DNA from: an uncultured Lactobacillus sp.
Lineage (GTDB): Bacteria; Bacillota; Bacilli; Lactobacillales; Lactobacillaceae
Direction: 5' to 3'
Assembly: GCF_947367125.1 (NCBI RefSeq)
Contig: NZ_CANBCQ010000003.1
Span: 8,502-72,501, forward strand
DNA length: 64,000 nucleotides
Shown here: piece by piece, positions 47,661 to 64,000 of the stretch
Layout: every line of letters starts with the position of its first letter
Position numbering within the stretch: the first letter of the stretch is position 1
Program-made: the position numbers and the translations under genes
Notes under the pieces: generated by a model
What the model was told of the DNA's origin: nothing
Database searches by the model: none
Seen by the model: the letters and a program-made list of their open reading frames with translations, nothing else

Positions 47661-47930
47661 AAAGAAAAAGCCCATCATCCCCTCTAGTTTGGGACGAAAG
47701 GCTTTTTTCCGCGGTACCACCCACATTGTCTAAATATAGACCAACTCATGAAGCACCAACATGCTTCACCGGCGTGGTAACGTACCGGAGACGTCTCGAC
47801 CTACTATAAGAATTGTTAGTTCGGTGAGCTGCTAAAAGTGTTTTTCAATAGTTCAGGGTCTGCTGGCTTTTCACTAACACCAACTCACTGCTAAGAATAA
47901 ACTACCTACTTGTCTTTTTCATAGCCTTTT
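47661..47930 (-). promoter_or_regulatory. T-box riboswitch, predicted specifier AAC (Asn), upstream of glnQ
   Basis: AGTA/GAA loop-E flanking GGTAGTT/AACTATT; specifier loop GAAAAACA; T-box GGGTGGTACCGCGG (47709-47722); terminator GCCTTTCGTCCC...GGGGATGATGGGC-TTTTT. Confidence 0.9.
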
Positions 47931-48087
47931 AATTTATTTATATGTATTTAACATTATTTTTCAAGAAAATGCAAGGGAAAATAATTTCAATCGCAAATGT
48001 ATCCGTTTTTAATCAAAATAAATGCTGTTAATATTCGGAAAATAGCTTAGAATATTAGTGATACCTAGAAAATTAAAGGAGTTTGAT

Positions 48088-50863: not shown

Positions 50864-50930
50864 AAAAATGCTCCTTACTAACATACTGTCAGTAGGAGCA
50901 CACAAATAAAAGTTTTAATTCTCTTTTTAG

Positions 50931-51003
50931 CACTTTCCCTTGCGCAAGTATTATCTTGTTCAGGTTCAAAGGGTATTATCTCAGCATTCCGCACCCCTAG
51001 TGA
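50931..51003 (-). promoter_or_regulatory. TPP riboswitch aptamer
   Basis: ACTAGGGGTGC...GCTGAGAT..TACCCTTTGAACCTGA.CAAGATAATACTTGCGCAAGGGAAAGTG; downstream hairpin (50865-50900) sequesters the RBS and ends in T5. Confidence 0.95.
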
Positions 51004-51046
51004 CATCTTATTCAATTAACAAACTCAGTATAGCATATGTAAAAAC

Positions 51047-52816: not shown

Positions 52817-54550
52817 CTATTCATTTCCTCCTTTCTTACCCTTTTGTGTCTTAAAAATTTCTTGGTAAACAGGTGAACTCTTAAGTAACTCCTCATGTGT
52901 ACCTTGAGCAACTAATTTACCATCATCTAAGACTAAAATGGTGTCTGCATTAACCACAGAAACAATTTTTTCAGCGATAATAAAAGTCGTAGTATCTGGC
53001 AACTCATGCTCTAAGGCTTCTTGTACTTTCTTTTCACTTTCTGCATCAAGTGCTGAAGTTGAATCATCTAAAATCAAAATTGGTGCCTTAGCAATCAAGC
53101 CTCGGGCGATTGATAGCCGCTGCTTTTGTCCACCAGAGAAGTTAGCTGAACGTTCTTCTACTTCATGATCAAAAGCGTCGTTATAACGTTCAATAAATTC
53201 TGAAGCTTGGGCCATGTTAGCAGCACGCTGCAATTCATGTAATTTAGCTTGAGCATTACCCTGACGCAAGTTAGATGCGATCGTTCCTGAGAAGAGAACT
53301 GCTCTTTGCAACACAAACGAAACGGTCTTGCGTAATGCCGCTTCAGTCACATCTTTAATATTGTGACCGCCAATTTTTATTTCACCCTTAGTTGGATCAT
53401 ATAAACGAGCAATTAATTGGGCCAAAGTAGACTTACCTGCACCGGTTGCGCCAACGATTCCGACCATTTGTCCTGGCTTAACTTTGAAAGAAATATTCTT
53501 TAAAGTTGGCTCATCCCCGTCAGGATAAGTAAAGGAAACATGGTCAAATTCCACGCTACCGCCAATAGGTGCAACTGAACCACTTTCAACAAACTTAACA
53601 TCTGGTTCAGTTTCTAACACTTCACGAATCCGCCCAAGTGAAATATTTGCTCTTGAGAATTGCATCAAAGTCATCCCGGCAATCATAATTGTAAATAATA
53701 GCGTTAAAACATAGTTTACAAAAGGACTAACAACTGCAATATCACTTGGATGAGCAGCAATATTGATCCCAATTAAGTAAACAATCAAAGCAATCACGGT
53801 ATATGCGATCATTTGAAAAGCTGGCATGATTGCGGAAAACCAGTAACCAATCACAATATTGTAGTCATTTAATTGATCTGAAGTTTGATCAAACTTTTTA
53901 ATTTCTTGTGGACCTTGATTAAATGACTTAACTACCCGCACACCTTGCAAAGTTTCTTGGGCTTGATTGGAAATTCGATCCATCATGGTCTGGAACTTAG
54001 CAAATAAACTGTTCATTCGTTTTAAGACATAAGCACCAAAGCCCATAATAAGAGCTACCATTACTACTGGAGCCCACCAAAAACGCGGAATAATGACAAT
54101 ACAAAAGATAAATGAACCCACAATCAAAATTGGCAAGCGCAGCATTTGCATGAAAAGCTGCATCATCATGTTCATTACTTGGTTCATATCGTTGATTAAC
54201 CGCGTAGTTAAAGAACCAGCAGAAAATTCCTTAATATTACCAAAAGAAAAAGTTTGAATTTTGGCATAAGTATCTTCACGTAAATCACTGACCACGCCTT
54301 GTGCAATCTTGGCGGCAAAATAAACATTAAAAATACCAGAAATAATTGCAATTACACCCAAGACTACTAACCAAATCCCATCAGACAAAACGGCGTCTTT
54401 TTGATCAGCCATCAATGCCTTTTGAATATTTTCTAATAATTTTGGTTGATATAATCCTGAAAAAGCTGAAACTAAAATGGCAATAATTGCCCATATAACA
54501 TCTTTTTTATAATGCTTTAAATATGGTGTAATGATCTTAAAGTTTTTCAT
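52817..54550 (-). CDS. Heterodimeric multidrug-type ABC exporter, subunit A
   Basis: TMD plus GATGAGKST, FSGGQKQR, degenerate LDDSTSALD and IAEK; start MKNFK at 54550. Confidence 0.92.
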   Translation of the reverse strand: MKNFKIITPYLKHYKKDVIWAIIAILVSAFSGLYQPKLLENIQKALMADQKDAVLSDGIWLVVLGVIAIISGIFNVYFAAKIAQGVVSDLREDTYAKIQTFSFGNIKEFSAGSLTTRLINDMNQVMNMMMQLFMQMLRLPILIVGSFIFCIVIIPRFWWAPVVMVALIMGFGAYVLKRMNSLFAKFQTMMDRISNQAQETLQGVRVVKSFNQGPQEIKKFDQTSDQLNDYNIVIGYWFSAIMPAFQMIAYTVIALIVYLIGINIAAHPSDIAVVSPFVNYVLTLLFTIMIAGMTLMQFSRANISLGRIREVLETEPDVKFVESGSVAPIGGSVEFDHVSFTYPDGDEPTLKNISFKVKPGQMVGIVGATGAGKSTLAQLIARLYDPTKGEIKIGGHNIKDVTEAALRKTVSFVLQRAVLFSGTIASNLRQGNAQAKLHELQRAANMAQASEFIERYNDAFDHEVEERSANFSGGQKQRLSIARGLIAKAPILILDDSTSALDAESEKKVQEALEHELPDTTTFIIAEKIVSVVNADTILVLDDGKLVAQGTHEELLKSSPVYQEIFKTQKGKKGGNE

Positions 54551-57683: not shown

Positions 57684-57920
57684 AAAACAAAAAGCACTCA
57701 TCCCCAAAAGGACGAGTGCTTCGTGTTACCACCTTTAATTTATCCATTACTTACGCAATGAACCTTACTAACTACCAACATAGTTTGTGACAGCTAACGG
57801 TTCACAACGCCGTTGTCAGCTACTATTCACTGACACTGATATCCAAGCCCATATTCATTATCTGCGATTGCTTATCCCTCACCAACCGATAATTCTCTGT
57901 AGCAATCACTTCATGCTTTT
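57684..57920 (-). promoter_or_regulatory. Met T-box (specifier ATG at 57850-57852) with apparently incomplete Stem I
   Basis: T-box AAATTAAAGGTGGTAACACG; terminator AAGCACTCGTCC-TTTTG-GGGATGAGTGCTTTTT; apical AGAG/GGTTGGTGAG motifs; GAATATGG specifier loop. Confidence 0.85.
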
Positions 57921-57924
57921 AATC

Positions 57925-60183
57925 TTATCTATTTACCTTTTTCTTTTTACCTAAAAATGCTAGACCAACTGAACTAATTAGAGCTGCTAGACCTAAACCA
58001 AATGCTGCTAAGCCATTTTGTTTTTCACCGGTTTGAGGTAATGACTTCTTTTGACCAATAGTTTCAGCGTTAACTACTGTCTTATTAGTTACATTTGAAA
58101 CAACTGATTTAGTAGAAGCAAGAGTGGTTGGCTCTGCTACCTTAGTATGATTTTCTATTTTTTCTGGCTTCTGTGCTTTTGGTGCAACAGTCTTCTCACG
58201 CTTAGTAGTCTTATGTTCCTTAGTTGGAACAGCTTGACCCTTTGGAACTACGGTTTGTTTATTATCATCATTAGTAGTTGGAGCAGTTGGGGTGTCTGTC
58301 GAATGAACCGGTGCATTTTGCGGTTCACTTGGTTGAGCTGGAGTGGTTGGAGTAGTTGGATTGTCTGGAACAACCGGATTCGTTGGAGTGGTTGGGGTTG
58401 TTGGAGTTTCAGGTTCATCTACCTTTGTAGTAACAGTAACTGTAAATGTCTTTGTAATCAACATGTCAGGTTGATTTGAGTCGTTCAACTTGTAAGCAAC
58501 AGTAACTAAATATTTTCCTGCTGGTGTATTAGCATTAATTCCTTGTACAATATTTCCTTGCGCGTCTTTAATACTTACCAACTTTGCATTTTCTGGAGCT
58601 ACTGGCACGTTTTCGAAGATGGCACCAGTATTATTAGCCTTTGGAAACTCAACATTATGCAATCCAGTAATGCCTTGAACATAATTCCAGTTAGCTGCTT
58701 CACTTGAACCTGCTTGGAACGTTTGATCCTTAGTAGAAATAATCTTATGTACTTCAACATAGAAATAAGGTTTGTTTGAATCTGGTATTGCGTTACCCTT
58801 GCCATCTGCTTCATGAATTATCAGACCTGGAGTAGCACTATATGAATAATAATTTATTAAAGTATTTAAATCATTGGCATTAGGATCTATTGAAAAACCA
58901 TACTGCTTCACGACTTCTTGAAGTGGGCTACCCTCTAAGTCAAATGTTTCATCTGAATAAAATGTATCTGGATAAGCAAGTTCAACATCATCTTGTTGAT
59001 TTGGATTAATCTTTAAAATATTGCCTACCTTAGGTACAAGGTCTGATAAGGCTGGATCATCTACAATGTTATAAGAACCGTTTGAATTACGAGTGGTCAA
59101 ATGAATGGTATCATTTTGAACTTCATCCTTAGTCCAAACAGGATGACTATCATGTACATATACATAGACACTATTAGCATTAAGAGCATTAGTAGTAATT
59201 TGATTACTAAGATCAGTTCTTGTTCCCTTTAAATCAATAACTAAAGGTACATTTAATCTTGCTGTAGTATCGGCTGGAATTTCTCCCGCAAAAGCAATTT
59301 GTTTAACGTTAATAATCCAATCTTTACCAAATTTATTAATGGTGTCTTGGTATGAATTCCAAGTTTGATCTGATCCTAAATAGTAAACTGGTAACGCATC
59401 GTCATTAATTACTTGACCGCTTTTATTATCAATGAATACTACATTGGATTGCTTGTCAGGATCAACAACTAAAGTATGTTTTTCGCCGCTCCATGCATTA
59501 ATAAAGAAATGTACACCGTTATCATTGTTAGTAGAATTCTTATCGCCAATATATTGTGCTTGATCGCTTATATTCTTTAATGATAAATGAGCTTCAATAT
59601 CTTCAGCATTTTTGGCATTGATTGTAGCGTGATTATCTTTACCTGCTTCTGCGGAAGATACTTGTTGAATTTGACCATTCTTATTATCTTTAGCAGAAAC
59701 TGAATAATTATAAGCAATAGAACCGTTGCTAGGAACACCAGTAATAGTACTATTCTTTCCACCAGCTCCATTGATTTTATCAGGTTGTGAAGTGTTTCCT
59801 TTGGCAGGAACAATAGCCTGATTTGCTACATCAGTTGAAGTTTTAGTTTTATTTTCTTCAGTAATTACATCTTTCTTAGGTACTGCATTAGTAGTAATAT
59901 GACCTGTATCTTTAGTTTGCTCGGAATCAGTAGCCTTAATATCTACCTTAGTTTGTTTAGCATTACTACTTTGAGCATCTACCTTAGTATCTGGTAATTG
60001 GACCTGTTCATCTGCTTTATCGGTTTGTACTTTTTGCTCTACAACAGGAGCCTTAGTAGAAGTATCTGCAGCATGAACTTCCGTTTGATTAGTGCCAAAG
60101 AAGACTAATCCAATTAATACTGAAGCTACCCCAATAGTCAATTTTCTAATTGAAAAACGTTGTTTTAAATCCCTATCTTTCAT
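57925..60183 (-). CDS. YSIRK signal / LPXTG sortase-anchored surface protein (putative adhesin)
   Basis: RFSIRKLTIGVASVLIG, Pro/Thr-rich stalk (TPTTPTTPTNP), LPQTG plus hydrophobic helix plus KKKKVNR. Confidence 0.92.
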   Translation of the reverse strand: MKDRDLKQRFSIRKLTIGVASVLIGLVFFGTNQTEVHAADTSTKAPVVEQKVQTDKADEQVQLPDTKVDAQSSNAKQTKVDIKATDSEQTKDTGHITTNAVPKKDVITEENKTKTSTDVANQAIVPAKGNTSQPDKINGAGGKNSTITGVPSNGSIAYNYSVSAKDNKNGQIQQVSSAEAGKDNHATINAKNAEDIEAHLSLKNISDQAQYIGDKNSTNNDNGVHFFINAWSGEKHTLVVDPDKQSNVVFIDNKSGQVINDDALPVYYLGSDQTWNSYQDTINKFGKDWIINVKQIAFAGEIPADTTARLNVPLVIDLKGTRTDLSNQITTNALNANSVYVYVHDSHPVWTKDEVQNDTIHLTTRNSNGSYNIVDDPALSDLVPKVGNILKINPNQQDDVELAYPDTFYSDETFDLEGSPLQEVVKQYGFSIDPNANDLNTLINYYSYSATPGLIIHEADGKGNAIPDSNKPYFYVEVHKIISTKDQTFQAGSSEAANWNYVQGITGLHNVEFPKANNTGAIFENVPVAPENAKLVSIKDAQGNIVQGINANTPAGKYLVTVAYKLNDSNQPDMLITKTFTVTVTTKVDEPETPTTPTTPTNPVVPDNPTTPTTPAQPSEPQNAPVHSTDTPTAPTTNDDNKQTVVPKGQAVPTKEHKTTKREKTVAPKAQKPEKIENHTKVAEPTTLASTKSVVSNVTNKTVVNAETIGQKKSLPQTGEKQNGLAAFGLGLAALISSVGLAFLGKKKKVNR

Positions 60184-60924: not shown

Positions 60925-61593
60925 TTATTTAGTAATGAAATCAAGTAGAGTAAACATTACATCTTTATTTTCTGCTGGCACGCCATGAGCCATAATCTCT
61001 GCTGGGGTTTGATGCAAATCATTATTTTCTAAAGCATAAGCCCCATCATTGATAGCAATTTCACGCACATTATCTATTTGTGGTTCAAAATGGAATTGCA
61101 AGCCAATTACATTGTCACCTAATAAAAAGCCCTGATTTTTAACTAAATCACTTGAAAATAACAATTTAGCTTCTGCCGGTATTTCGCTCATTTGTTCATG
61201 CCAATGAAGTGCGGTTAACTTAGCCGGAATATTCTTAATAGTTTGCTCTTGTAAATAAACTGGTGCCCAACCAACTTCTTTAGCTGGTGCATCAAGCACC
61301 TGATAGCCCAAAGTCTTAGCAATTTGTTGGCTGCCAAAACAAATTCCTAAAATCGGCTTGTGTTGATCCAACATCTGTTTAATTAAAACTCGTTCCTTTT
61401 TTATCCAAGCAAGATCATCATTTGGGCTATTAGGACTACCCAAAATTACTAATAAATCTGTTTCATCAACGCTAGGCAAAATGCCAAAATCTCCCGGATG
61501 ATAAACAAACATCTCATTATTTTTAGCATGACACCAAGCTTGAATCGAACCCGGTCCTTCATTAGGTGCATGTTGCAATACATTAACGCGCAT
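60925..61593 (-). CDS. Class I glutamine amidotransferase-like protein (GMP synthase GAT-like)
   Basis: VLQHAPNEGPG, LGICFGSQ catalytic Cys, GLQFHFE; start MRVNV at 61593. Confidence 0.88.
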   Translation of the reverse strand: MRVNVLQHAPNEGPGSIQAWCHAKNNEMFVYHPGDFGILPSVDETDLLVILGSPNSPNDDLAWIKKERVLIKQMLDQHKPILGICFGSQQIAKTLGYQVLDAPAKEVGWAPVYLQEQTIKNIPAKLTALHWHEQMSEIPAEAKLLFSSDLVKNQGFLLGDNVIGLQFHFEPQIDNVREIAINDGAYALENNDLHQTPAEIMAHGVPAENKDVMFTLLDFITK

Positions 61594-61752
61594 AAAATCC
61601 CCTTTTTTACTCAACAATATTTTGTTCCAATTCTATGCTTCAGTTAAAGCAAAAACAAGGAAACCTAAATATTTATTTAAGTCATTCTTTAGAAACTATA
61701 TGTCACCTTATATGATACAATTATACATATTTTTATATTCTGGAGGATTTTT

Positions 61753-63084
61753 ATGGACAATCACCTTAAACGCAGTATTGGCTTGGGGGCTGCCCTTTCA
61801 ATTATCGTTGGTACAATTATCGGCTCAGGAATCTTCTTTAAACAAGCTTCTGTTCTAGACAGTGCTGGTTCATCCCTAATGGCTTTGTTAGCCTGGATTT
61901 TAGCCGGAATTATTACTTTAACCGCTGGTTTAACTATTGCTGAAATCGGGTCGCAAATGCCTTATACTGGTGGGCTTTATGTTTACATTGAAAAAATATA
62001 CGGTCGCGTTTTAGGCTTTATCGTTGGCTGGATGCAAGCAATTGTCTACGGCCCAGCCATGATCGCTGCAGTAACTGGATTTTTAAGCATTATGGTGACC
62101 AATCTTTTCGGAATTGGCGCAGAGTGGCGTATTCCGATTGGTTTAATCACAATTATTGCCATCGGTGGCTTAAACTTTTTAGAAAATAAAGTTGGCGCTG
62201 CTTTTGCCATGATTACCACCATTGCTAAAATGATTCCAATTTTTGCGATTATCTTTTGCGGCATCTGCTGGGGCGAGCAAAATGCTATCGCACAAACCGT
62301 AACTGAAGTTAACCGTTCAACTGGTGGTTTTGGCGTAGCTGTTTTAGCCGCACTGTTTGCCTATGATGGCTGGATCTTCATCGCTAATCTAGGTGGTGAA
62401 ATGAAAAATCCGCAAAAACTATTACCTAAAGCAATTATTATCGGCATCACTATTGTGTTAGTAATTTATGCCTTAATCACTATCGGTATTTTCAGCTTTA
62501 TTCCTGCTGATAAAATTCACGAATTGGGACAAAATTCAACTACTTACTTGGCTGACGCTATCTTGGGTCCAATCGGCGGCAAAGTTTTATCTGTCGGCAT
62601 TATCATTTCAATGTTAGGTACGCTTAACGGAGAAATGTTAACCTTCCCACGGATTATTTATGCCATGGCTAAGCGTGGCGATTTGCCATTTTCAAGATAT
62701 TTATCATATGTAACGCCTAAGGGTAAAGCTCCCGTGGTAGCAACTATGCTTTTAATCACTTTAACTGGAATCATGATGGTCTTTTTCGATCCTGATTACT
62801 TATCAAACCTTTGCGTTTTCACTATTTATAGTTTCTATGTGCTAGCATTCTTTGGTTTATTTATTTTAAGACGTAAAAATAAAAAAACGTGTCCATTCAG
62901 CGTACCCTTTTATCCAATTATTCCATTAATCGCTATTTCAGGTGGACTCTTTGTTTTAATCAGCCAATTTATAAATGATCCTATTGGAGTTTTGCTCTTT
63001 AGCGGAATTACGGCTATTGGTTGGCCAATCTTTTTCTTAGTTAAAAAGATGAGCAAGGTTCAAACGACAATTATCGAAGACTAA
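61753..63084 (+). CDS. APC-family amino acid permease (SteT-like), copy 1 of a tandem pair
   Basis: GTIIGSGIFFK, AEIGSQMPYTGG, LFAYDGW, GEMKNPQK. Confidence 0.92.
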   Translation: MDNHLKRSIGLGAALSIIVGTIIGSGIFFKQASVLDSAGSSLMALLAWILAGIITLTAGLTIAEIGSQMPYTGGLYVYIEKIYGRVLGFIVGWMQAIVYGPAMIAAVTGFLSIMVTNLFGIGAEWRIPIGLITIIAIGGLNFLENKVGAAFAMITTIAKMIPIFAIIFCGICWGEQNAIAQTVTEVNRSTGGFGVAVLAALFAYDGWIFIANLGGEMKNPQKLLPKAIIIGITIVLVIYALITIGIFSFIPADKIHELGQNSTTYLADAILGPIGGKVLSVGIIISMLGTLNGEMLTFPRIIYAMAKRGDLPFSRYLSYVTPKGKAPVVATMLLITLTGIMMVFFDPDYLSNLCVFTIYSFYVLAFFGLFILRRKNKKTCPFSVPFYPIIPLIAISGGLFVLISQFINDPIGVLLFSGITAIGWPIFFLVKKMSKVQTTIIED

Positions 63085-63100
63085 AAATTTTAAATTTTGC

Positions 63101-63129
63101 TTGTTCATTCTACTTAATTATGATATTCT
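63101..63129 (+). promoter_or_regulatory. Putative sigma-A promoter of the leader/permease copy 2
   Basis: TTGTTC-17 nt-TATTCT with TG extension. Confidence 0.55.
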
Positions 63130-63156
63130 AATTAAAATTAATTAGGAGATTTAATT

Positions 63157-63210
63157 ATGATTTATCTATACACCACTTTAGCATTTTCATCCAACTCAAG
63201 TTCCAACTGA
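63157..63210 (+). CDS. Serine-rich leader peptide MIYLYTTLAFSSNSSSN (17 aa)
   Basis: AGGAG RBS at 63144-63148, ATG 63157, five Ser codons among the last seven sense codons, TGA 63208-63210, embedded in attenuator helices. Confidence 0.8.
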   Translation: MIYLYTTLAFSSNSSSN

Positions 63211-63241
63211 ACTTGAGTGGCTTTGGTGTACATAAATCTAG

Positions 63242-63290
63242 GCCGGATTCACTCAATCATTTTTGATGATGAAGTGGACTCGGCTTTTTT
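63242..63290 (+). terminator. Attenuator terminator upstream of permease copy 2
   Basis: GCCGGATTCACT (63242-63253) pairs with AGTGGACTCGGC (63273-63284), then T6. Confidence 0.85.
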
Positions 63291-63308
63291 GCGTAAAGGA
63301 GAAAAACA

Positions 63309-64000
63309 ATGGATAACAAACTCAAACGCAATATTGGTTTTGGCTCAGCCCTTTCAATCGTAATTGGGACCATTATTGGTTCGGGCATCTTTTTCAAGCA
63401 AGCTTCGGTCTTAGACAGCGCCGGTTCTACCACAATGGCGCTCTTAGCCTGGATTTTTGGTGGCTTAATTACTTTAGCGGCTGGTCTAACTATCGCCGAA
63501 ATCGGTGCCCAGATGCCTTATACTGGTGGACTTTATGTTTATATTGAAAATCTTTACGGCCGCATTTTAGGTTTTATGGCTGGCTGGATGCAAATTATTG
63601 TCTACGGACCTGCAATTATTGCTGCAGTGGCCGGTTTCATGAGTATCATGATGACTAATTTTTTTGAACTAAATAGTGCATGGCGCATTCCGCTTGCCTT
63701 AATCACAGTCTTAGTAATTGGAATCATGAACTTCTTTGAAAATAAAGTCGGTGCAGCCTTTTCAGTCATTACCACAATTGCCAAGATGATCCCCATTGCA
63801 GCAATTATTATTTGCGGCATTTGCTGGGGACAACAAGATGCCTTGGGGCAAACTGTAACGGAACTTACTCATCATACTGGTAATTTTGGCGTAGCTGTTT
63901 TAGCAACTTTATTTGGTTACGACGGTTGGATTTTAATCGCTAACTTAGGTGGCGAAATGAAAAATCCTCAAAAATTATTGCCTAAAGCTATCGTTGCAGG
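63309..64000 (+). CDS. APC-family amino acid permease (SteT-like), copy 2, runs off the window end
   Basis: AAAGGAG RBS; MDNKLKRNIGFGSALSIVIGTIIGSGIFFKQASVLDSAGS...LFGYDGWILIANLGGEMKNPQKLLPKAIVA; open to base 64000. Confidence 0.92.
   Translation, partial: MDNKLKRNIGFGSALSIVIGTIIGSGIFFKQASVLDSAGSTTMALLAWIFGGLITLAAGLTIAEIGAQMPYTGGLYVYIENLYGRILGFMAGWMQIIVYGPAIIAAVAGFMSIMMTNFFELNSAWRIPLALITVLVIGIMNFFENKVGAAFSVITTIAKMIPIAAIIICGICWGQQDALGQTVTELTHHTGNFGVAVLATLFGYDGWILIANLGGEMKNPQKLLPKAIVA

Follow-up and report, generated by a model that had tools for sequence, protein, structure and literature searches.

Leader peptides that sense amino acids are rare in Firmicutes. One described case is the Rfam family RF01743, which we take to be the leu/phe leader of Lactococcus; that leader also precedes transporter genes. 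In Staphylococcus aureus the ilv-leu operon carries a Leu-rich attenuator peptide (PMC5794164), and in bacilli a His leader is found before hisS-paralogue/hisZ genes (PMC2965389). The element described here lies in a stretch of 64,000 nucleotides (nt) from an uncultured Lactobacillus sp. (contig NZ_CANBCQ010000003.1, positions 8,502 to 72,501), which is referred to below as the window. As judged from sequence comparison and modelling, the element most probably attenuates transcription by way of a translating ribosome, with charged tRNA-Ser as the signal and a serine-type permease of the LAT family as the gene under control. We know of no described serine attenuator, and no published serine leader peptide was found in the open full-text literature (subscription journals lay outside the search).

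The leader occupies the 224-nt spacer between a permease gene (61753-63084) and its tandem paralogue (63309 onward); the two products are 73% identical. All features of the locus are on the forward strand. The promoter (63101-63129) consists of a -35 box TTGTTC (63101-63106), a 17-nt spacer and a -10 box TATTCT (63124-63129); with the TG found at 63121-63122, the promoter is of the extended -10 type (TG-n-TATTCT, 63121-63129). The Shine-Dalgarno sequence AGGAG (63144-63148) is placed 8 nt before the ATG of a leader-peptide upstream open reading frame (uORF; 63157-63210), which has 17 codons plus TGA (63208-63210) and the predicted product MIYLYTTLAFSSNSSSN. Five of its final seven sense codons encode Ser (TCA TCC at 63187-63192, TCA AGT TCC at 63196-63204).

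The minimum-energy fold of the leader (-50 kcal/mol) combines three elements: the protector hairpin, or helix 1:2 (63194-63218; 63194-63203 pairs with 63209-63218), an outer helix that encloses it (63159-63238; 63159-63175 pairs with 63224-63238), and an intrinsic terminator, 3:4 (63240-63290; stem 63240-63286, run of six T at 63285-63290). None of 200 shuffled sequences folded equally well (z-score -4.99). The Ser codons overlap the 5' arm of helix 1:2, and the stop codon is located in the loop and the first 3'-arm bases of the same hairpin. The regulated permease (63298-64000) follows, with GGAG at 63298-63301 and its ATG at 63309; the product has 439 residues and is cut by the window end. 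The locus thus shares with the trp/his/thr class of attenuators a short reading frame with its own ribosome-binding site and start codon, and an intrinsic terminator placed between this frame and the structural gene. An earlier note, made by a model that read the sequence alone, had listed the promoter, the AGGAG, the 17-codon uORF, the protector, the outer helix, the terminator and the permease ATG, and all of them were recovered at the positions it gave. Its antiterminator also held as a pairing, but the length of 7 base pairs did not. In ribosome-constrained folding the antiterminator (2:3, 63213-63256) has about 14 base pairs between 63213-63227 and 63242-63256, formed by 63213-63220 with 63249-63256 and by 63222-63227 with 63242-63247.

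From these features we infer a switch that depends on ribosome stalling and responds to serine. Transcription would start near 63136, and the leader RNA would encode the 17-residue peptide. When serine is plentiful, the ribosome would reach the TGA at 63208 and cover strand 2 (63213-63220). With strand 2 covered, strand 3 would pair with strand 4, and the terminator (63240-63290) would halt RNA polymerase ahead of the permease. When serine is scarce, the ribosome would stall at the Ser codons, opening helix 1:2 and leaving strand 2 free to pair with strand 3 (63242-63256) once this has been made. No terminator would then form, the permease would be transcribed and more serine would be imported. 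If the leader were not translated at all, helix 1:2 and the outer helix would sequester strand 2, the outer helix locking its 3' half, and transcription would terminate. This trp/his-type logic with Ser as the sensed residue had been proposed in the earlier note, and it finds comparative support in the uORF, its frame, its Ser run, the covarying helices, folding under ribosome masks and the gene family.

A DNA search of 61 relatives detected the leader in nine genomes, within the genus only (a match at L010 was spurious). A covariance model was built on the sequences from these nine genomes, with the uORF start and its ribosome-binding site deliberately excluded. This model found a single copy in each of 28 of the 99 Lactobacillus genomes, and a broader second model together with direct inspection added three more Lactobacillus leaders. 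Orthologues of the permease, identified by protein search, are found in the same Lactobacillus genomes as the leader, and the leader, one per genome, precedes all 31 of the 31 orthologous genes. The Lactobacillus sensu stricto set includes L. helveticus DSM 20075, L. ultunensis and L. agrestimuris. The second genus rich in matches is Limosilactobacillus, where most of the sampled permease orthologues are also preceded by the leader. Among the 401 Lactobacillaceae genomes scanned, the scaffold is present in 39 genomes of 7 genera. In other families of the order the broader model gave no credible match. The matches in G178, G135 (at 54334), G562 and G582 were dismissed as bare terminators without a uORF, and because of this no occurrence outside Lactobacillaceae is claimed. 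The terminator is palindromic, which accounts for weak reverse-strand matches in the G026 group.

Some loci in this set are irregular. The leader L035 (G081:C33:89848-89965) has a GTG start, only four Ser codons, a weak terminator and no permease gene downstream, and it looks like a decaying relic after gene loss. In three genomes the leader-controlled permease is truncated or contains an in-frame stop (G033:C10:32400-33716, G102:C4:6382-7683 and G016:C4). These genes could be pseudogenes or assembly errors; at least one of the three genomes, G033, is metagenome-assembled.

A Ser-rich uORF conserved upstream of orthologous permeases, which the earlier note had looked for as a check, is present in all 38 distinct versions of the leader. 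Every one has a Shine-Dalgarno core (36 at 7-11 nt before the ATG, one at 14 nt and one before a GTG). The uORFs are 17-24 codons long and contain 4-9 Ser codons, with both TCN and AGY used. Counted from the start codon, the conserved CUCA of the hairpin is reached at 38, 41, 44 or 47 nt. These values are all equal modulo 3, and therefore insertions and deletions in the uORF are always of whole codons. Stops are usually present in the other two frames, and each of the 38 uORFs has one in at least one of them. The N-terminal halves of the leader peptides vary freely, and the Ser run is the sole conserved peptide feature. Between the Ser run and the stop codon there are 0-7 codons, and for all uORF frames used the loop, the 3' arm or the GAG-UGA that begins strand 2 contains the stop codon. 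Upstream of the uORF, the ATGATATTCTAAT block and a TTGC-type -35 box are kept in Lactobacillus and Limosilactobacillus leaders.

Aligned codons of the run swap between TCN and AGY; for example, an AAC of the window is AGC in G033 and TCC in G003. Such switching points to the amino acid, and not the RNA sequence, as the target of selection. The earlier note had allowed for Asn or Thr as co-sensed residues, and neither suggestion survived. Asn is placed outside the regulatory signal because the two AAC codons of the window are AGC or TCC, both Ser codons, in relatives. Thr is low in the peptides of the Ser-type element (median 1), and a separate sister form, described below, would sense Thr. 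Codon choice is also skewed in the leaders. TCC, the rarest Ser codon of this genome (5.1% of Ser codons in 855 long reading frames), is used more than any other Ser codon in Lactobacillus leaders (32%). Each of the anticodons GGA, UGA, CGA and GCU is represented by a single tRNA-Ser gene in the genome.

Base pairing was counted in a model-derived alignment of 42 distinct sequences. This alignment was fitted to the terminator-state structure, and its covariation figures lean in favour of that structure. Overall, 90.7% of the cells of the terminator state are paired and 22 of its 29 pairs show changes on both sides, a result matched by none of 500 shuffles. The protector has 94% of cells paired and both-side changes in 5 of 9 pairs, the outer helix 84% and 4 of the 5 modelled pairs, and the terminator 93% and 12 of 13 pairs. 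Independent compensatory changes can also be seen by eye: in the G026 group CUCAA/UUGAG is replaced by CUCAU/AUGAG, and in G006 the arm becomes CUCAAUCUC/GAGAUUGAG. The antiterminator pairs, as defined in the window, are pairable in 81% of cells, compared with 28-51% for slid controls. In the G036/G073 lineage strand 2 changed from GAGUGA to GAGUAG and strand 3 from UCACUC to CUACUC, and strand 4 changed to match. This supports the 2:3 pairing, because strand 2 takes no part in the terminator. The antiterminator is backed mainly by conserved sequence and pairing potential, together with this one lineage with compensatory changes.

The ribosome was mimicked in folding by making a block of the leader sequence unavailable. 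With the mask on a mid-run Ser codon of the window, strand 2 and the 5' arm of the terminator pair at -17.4 kcal/mol. With the mask at the stop codon, the upper eight antiterminator pairs are covered and -6.0 kcal/mol is left. When no mask is applied, protector, outer helix and terminator together make up the minimum-energy structure of the full-length leader (-48.2 kcal/mol). In 40 of the 43 folded homologues more terminator bases are paired in the stalled state (6-23 nt) than in the stop-codon state (0-11 nt). In the remaining three the terminator was missed by automatic detection, and pairing was scored for neither state. A further pairing was seen in the predicted folds of Limosilactobacillus leaders such as L046 (G501) and L043 (G466), where CUUCCUCC in the Ser codons is base-paired to the GGAGG belonging to the uORF itself. 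This pairing, which is absent from the window leader, might modulate initiation of the leader peptide.

The regulated permease is an APC permease (Pfam AA_permease_2, E-value 3.5e-56). Its closest solved relative is BasC (6f2g, E-value 5e-91, residues 13-432), and its best NCBIfam model is TIGR00911, with a score under the cut-off of that model. Full-length similarity and the APC domain place the protein in the LAT family (BasC, SteT, SLC7 light chains). Lactococcus SerP1 and SerP2 were considered as homologues of the tandem permeases and dropped, as the window proteins are of the LAT family; SerP1 and SerP2 presumably belong to the AAT family. BasC is an alanine-serine-cysteine exchanger of Carnobacterium (PMC6472337, PMC6445583). 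SteT (YkbA), the Bacillus subtilis member of the family, is a Ser/Thr exchanger; in the B. cereus group a Thr T-box stands upstream of its orthologue (PMC2494555). A serine-type substrate is plausible for the permease because its relatives BasC and SteT transport Ser. The codon cluster (five Ser in the window, 4-9 in homologues) would then encode the amino acid linked to the gene, and a regulatory logic in which shortage induces an importer is coherent.

A sister class of leaders with Thr-rich uORFs was found in six Lactobacillaceae genera (Limosilactobacillus and five others), and a genome that has it often carries the Ser type as well. These leaders (L075:1501-1668 in G181, L074, L076, L049, L089 and L091-L110) have the same architecture and were detected over their full length by the same broader covariance model. 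Their peptides, such as MQIYNKSIIHHLTSTSTTTTITVVE and LTSTSTTTT (TSTSTTTT type), contain 5-8 Thr each. The sister form is always found upstream of a ThrP/YifK-like permease of the AAT family, which is 23% identical to the permease of the window. The best NCBIfam match of this protein is ThrP, a threonine/serine carrier (E-value 3.6e-166, below the cut-off of the model), and the next model is taken to be that of YifK from E. coli. Transport of Thr and Ser by YifK has been characterised (PMC10070963). Ser outnumbers Thr in 38 of the 39 distinct peptides before the LAT permease and Thr outnumbers Ser in 21 of 21 before the ThrP-like gene; these events are not independent and no probability is attached to the split. 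The split nevertheless behaves like a natural codon-swap experiment.

The evidence also has to be weighed against other explanations. The hairpin might be a mere constitutive terminator of the upstream paralogue (61753-63084, 443 residues, without a leader of its own) and the short reading frame a chance one, an objection that the earlier note had raised against itself. No other terminator was found between the stop codon of the paralogue (63084) and the leader promoter, as this explanation would have it, and because of this the terminator of the attenuator probably also ends transcripts of the upstream paralogue in this genome. However, the leaderless duplicate is found only in the genome of the window (G000) and two close relatives (G033, G068). 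In other genomes the genes before the leader are unrelated ones, and the leader brings a conserved promoter of its own. The uORF, its Shine-Dalgarno sequence, frame and Ser run are kept in every distinct version, and these comparative data largely refute the objection. The probability of this explanation is close to nil. A switch that binds a ligand, a tRNA or a protein would have GAGUGAUUUUGGU as its binding site, with an incidental uORF and "Ser codons" that are structural (for example as an anti-Shine-Dalgarno CCUCC). It would fit the unusual conservation of strand 2, and in predicted folds many leaders have a CCUCC able to pair with the Shine-Dalgarno sequence of the uORF. Yet the window, G033 and G036 lack CCUCC and keep Ser via AGC, AGT and TCA, the frame is held across four different lengths, and codon identity follows the type of transporter (Ser or Thr). 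The three pairing partners of strand 2 alone account for its conservation, there is no T-box signature, and no Rfam family is matched above noise even at an E-value of 10. Such a switch is very unlikely.

There are two further explanations. The attenuator may not be specific for Ser and may report a general slowdown of translation (stringent conditions, ribosome-targeting antibiotics) or Ser and Thr jointly. Firmicutes do have leader-peptide attenuators that respond to ribosome stalling in general (the ermC type, mentioned in PMC2965389), and Thr and Ser codons occur together in a few leaders, such as MTTSSDST in G500. General slowdown would not explain why the Ser run is the only conserved feature of the peptide and why the rarest Ser codon is enriched in leaders. 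It is also at odds with the control of an amino-acid permease from a Ser-transporting family and with a Thr-rich sister form that serves a Thr/Ser carrier, and is considered unlikely. Finally, free serine or some other small molecule might cause a nascent poly-Ser peptide to arrest the ribosome, in the manner of TnaC and tryptophan. Identical residues do form a conserved run close to the C-terminus of the leader peptides, with a stop codon soon after, but peptide length, flanks and the spacing between Ser run and stop codon (0-7 codons) vary more than a fit to the exit tunnel would allow. The logic would also be inverted, with serine excess inducing an importer, and arrest of this kind is highly improbable.

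Attenuation by ribosomes stalled at Ser codons is preferred over these explanations, and several points weigh against it. B. subtilis is said to couple transcription and translation poorly, and a switch coupled to the ribosome could be harder to achieve in this phylum. The uORF of the window is among the weaker ones, its five Ser codons being broken up by Asn, and RNA structure also constrains those bases of the Ser run that lie within helix 1:2. Of the compensatory pairs anticipated in the earlier note, those of the terminator-state helices were found. For the antiterminator they were seen in the G036/G073 lineage only, and its covariation in the 42 sequences does not exceed that of column shuffles. 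This lack of excess results from the high conservation of both strands, which is to be expected when strand 2 must pair with three partners. In equilibrium folding without a ribosome, truncated transcripts of many homologues also pair the 5' arm of the terminator upstream, and in these the untranslated state and the stalled state are inseparable by this method. Default termination consequently rests on a kinetic argument. The orthologue of the permease in Limosilactobacillus gastricus (75% identity; L066:1380-1490, L067) has no leader. The region upstream of it contains a plain hairpin and a ribosome-binding site without a Ser uORF, and L. gastricus appears to have lost the attenuator or never to have acquired it.

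The Rfam search that the earlier note had proposed as a check of novelty matched no family to the leader, whether gathering scores or E-values up to 10 were applied. Across all 4227 families of Rfam 15, only noise matches at E-values of 0.7 or more were obtained in the leader region, and RF01743, Thr_leader, His_leader, Leu_leader and Trp_leader gave no match to the leader at E-values up to 10. The T-box model RF00230 gave no match in 61500-63500 at E-values up to 10. The same model recovers the two T-boxes of the window that the earlier note had spotted, both on the minus strand. The element would work like the trp/his/thr attenuators, and it falls in no existing Rfam leader family and outside the T-box family.

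Of these two T-box leaders, the one at 47687-47931 has a full score of 105 bits, and the one at 57705-57932 has 74.4 bits (E-value 2.9e-14), under the Rfam gathering score of 93. The second is directly downstream of a large surface-protein reading frame on the minus strand (57925-60183). This frame encodes 752 residues, with an N-terminus that resembles a signal peptide, a spacer rich in Pro and Thr and, at the C-terminus, an LPQTG sorting motif, and its product is probably a cell-wall-anchored surface protein. A thiamine pyrophosphate (TPP) riboswitch (63 bits) is located at 50918-51008, also on the minus strand.

A wider proposal can be made tentatively. It is quite possible that Lactobacillaceae carry an undescribed, reprogrammable family of attenuators in which one scaffold serves as a Ser sensor before SteT/BasC-like genes and as a Thr sensor before ThrP/YifK-like genes, often with both in one genome, and which in these auxotrophs takes over the control of amino-acid importers that T-boxes exert elsewhere in Firmicutes. 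The mechanism requires RNA polymerase to be closely followed by a ribosome, and this would imply that a pause is built in to keep them in step. No clear match to a NusG-type TTNTTT pause motif was seen by eye after helix 1:2. If the proposal is true, helix 1:2 followed by UGAUUUUGG would be a candidate for such a synchronising pause, in a phylum thought to be poor at coupling. The Ser form would be the first serine-specific leader-peptide attenuator, and its sister a threonine one governing uptake rather than synthesis. The leaders would also allow substrates to be predicted for two widespread and poorly annotated permease families of lactobacilli, namely Ser for the LAT proteins and Thr/Ser for the ThrP-like ones. 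At about 155 nt, the element would offer a compact natural amino-acid-responsive switch for the toolbox of food and probiotic strains, as well as a clean test case for ribosome-coupled attenuation in Firmicutes. The natural exchange of Ser and Thr codons on one scaffold would amount to a specificity swap of the kind usually produced by mutagenesis.

Compared with known systems, the leader is most readily set beside the enterobacterial trpL, hisL, thrL, leuL, pheL and ilvL. It is like them in its short, presumably translated reading frame with a run of regulatory codons, in four strands that are predicted to pair as 1:2, 2:3 and 3:4, in a stop codon that adjoins strand 2, in a terminator before the structural gene and, as proposed here, in read-through on starvation. 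It differs from them in that they control biosynthetic operons, whereas here Ser would be sensed for a single permease in a Firmicute family, and it has no similarity to them in sequence or to their Rfam models. The Leu leader of S. aureus, the His leader of bacilli and the leu/phe leader of Lactococcus are likewise cases of ribosome-mediated, amino-acid-specific attenuation where T-boxes dominate, but they concern different amino acids and their sequences are unrelated. The Thr sister element has a homologous scaffold and the same architecture and differs in its Thr codons and in the AAT-family gene downstream. The T-box before SteT in the B. cereus group (PMC2494555) serves the same transporter family and follows the same logic, in which uncharged tRNA or a shortage of the amino acid relieves a terminator. 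The sensor there is an RNA that binds tRNA, whereas here it would be the ribosome that translates the Ser codons, and between the two leaders a single gene family would have changed its means of sensing.

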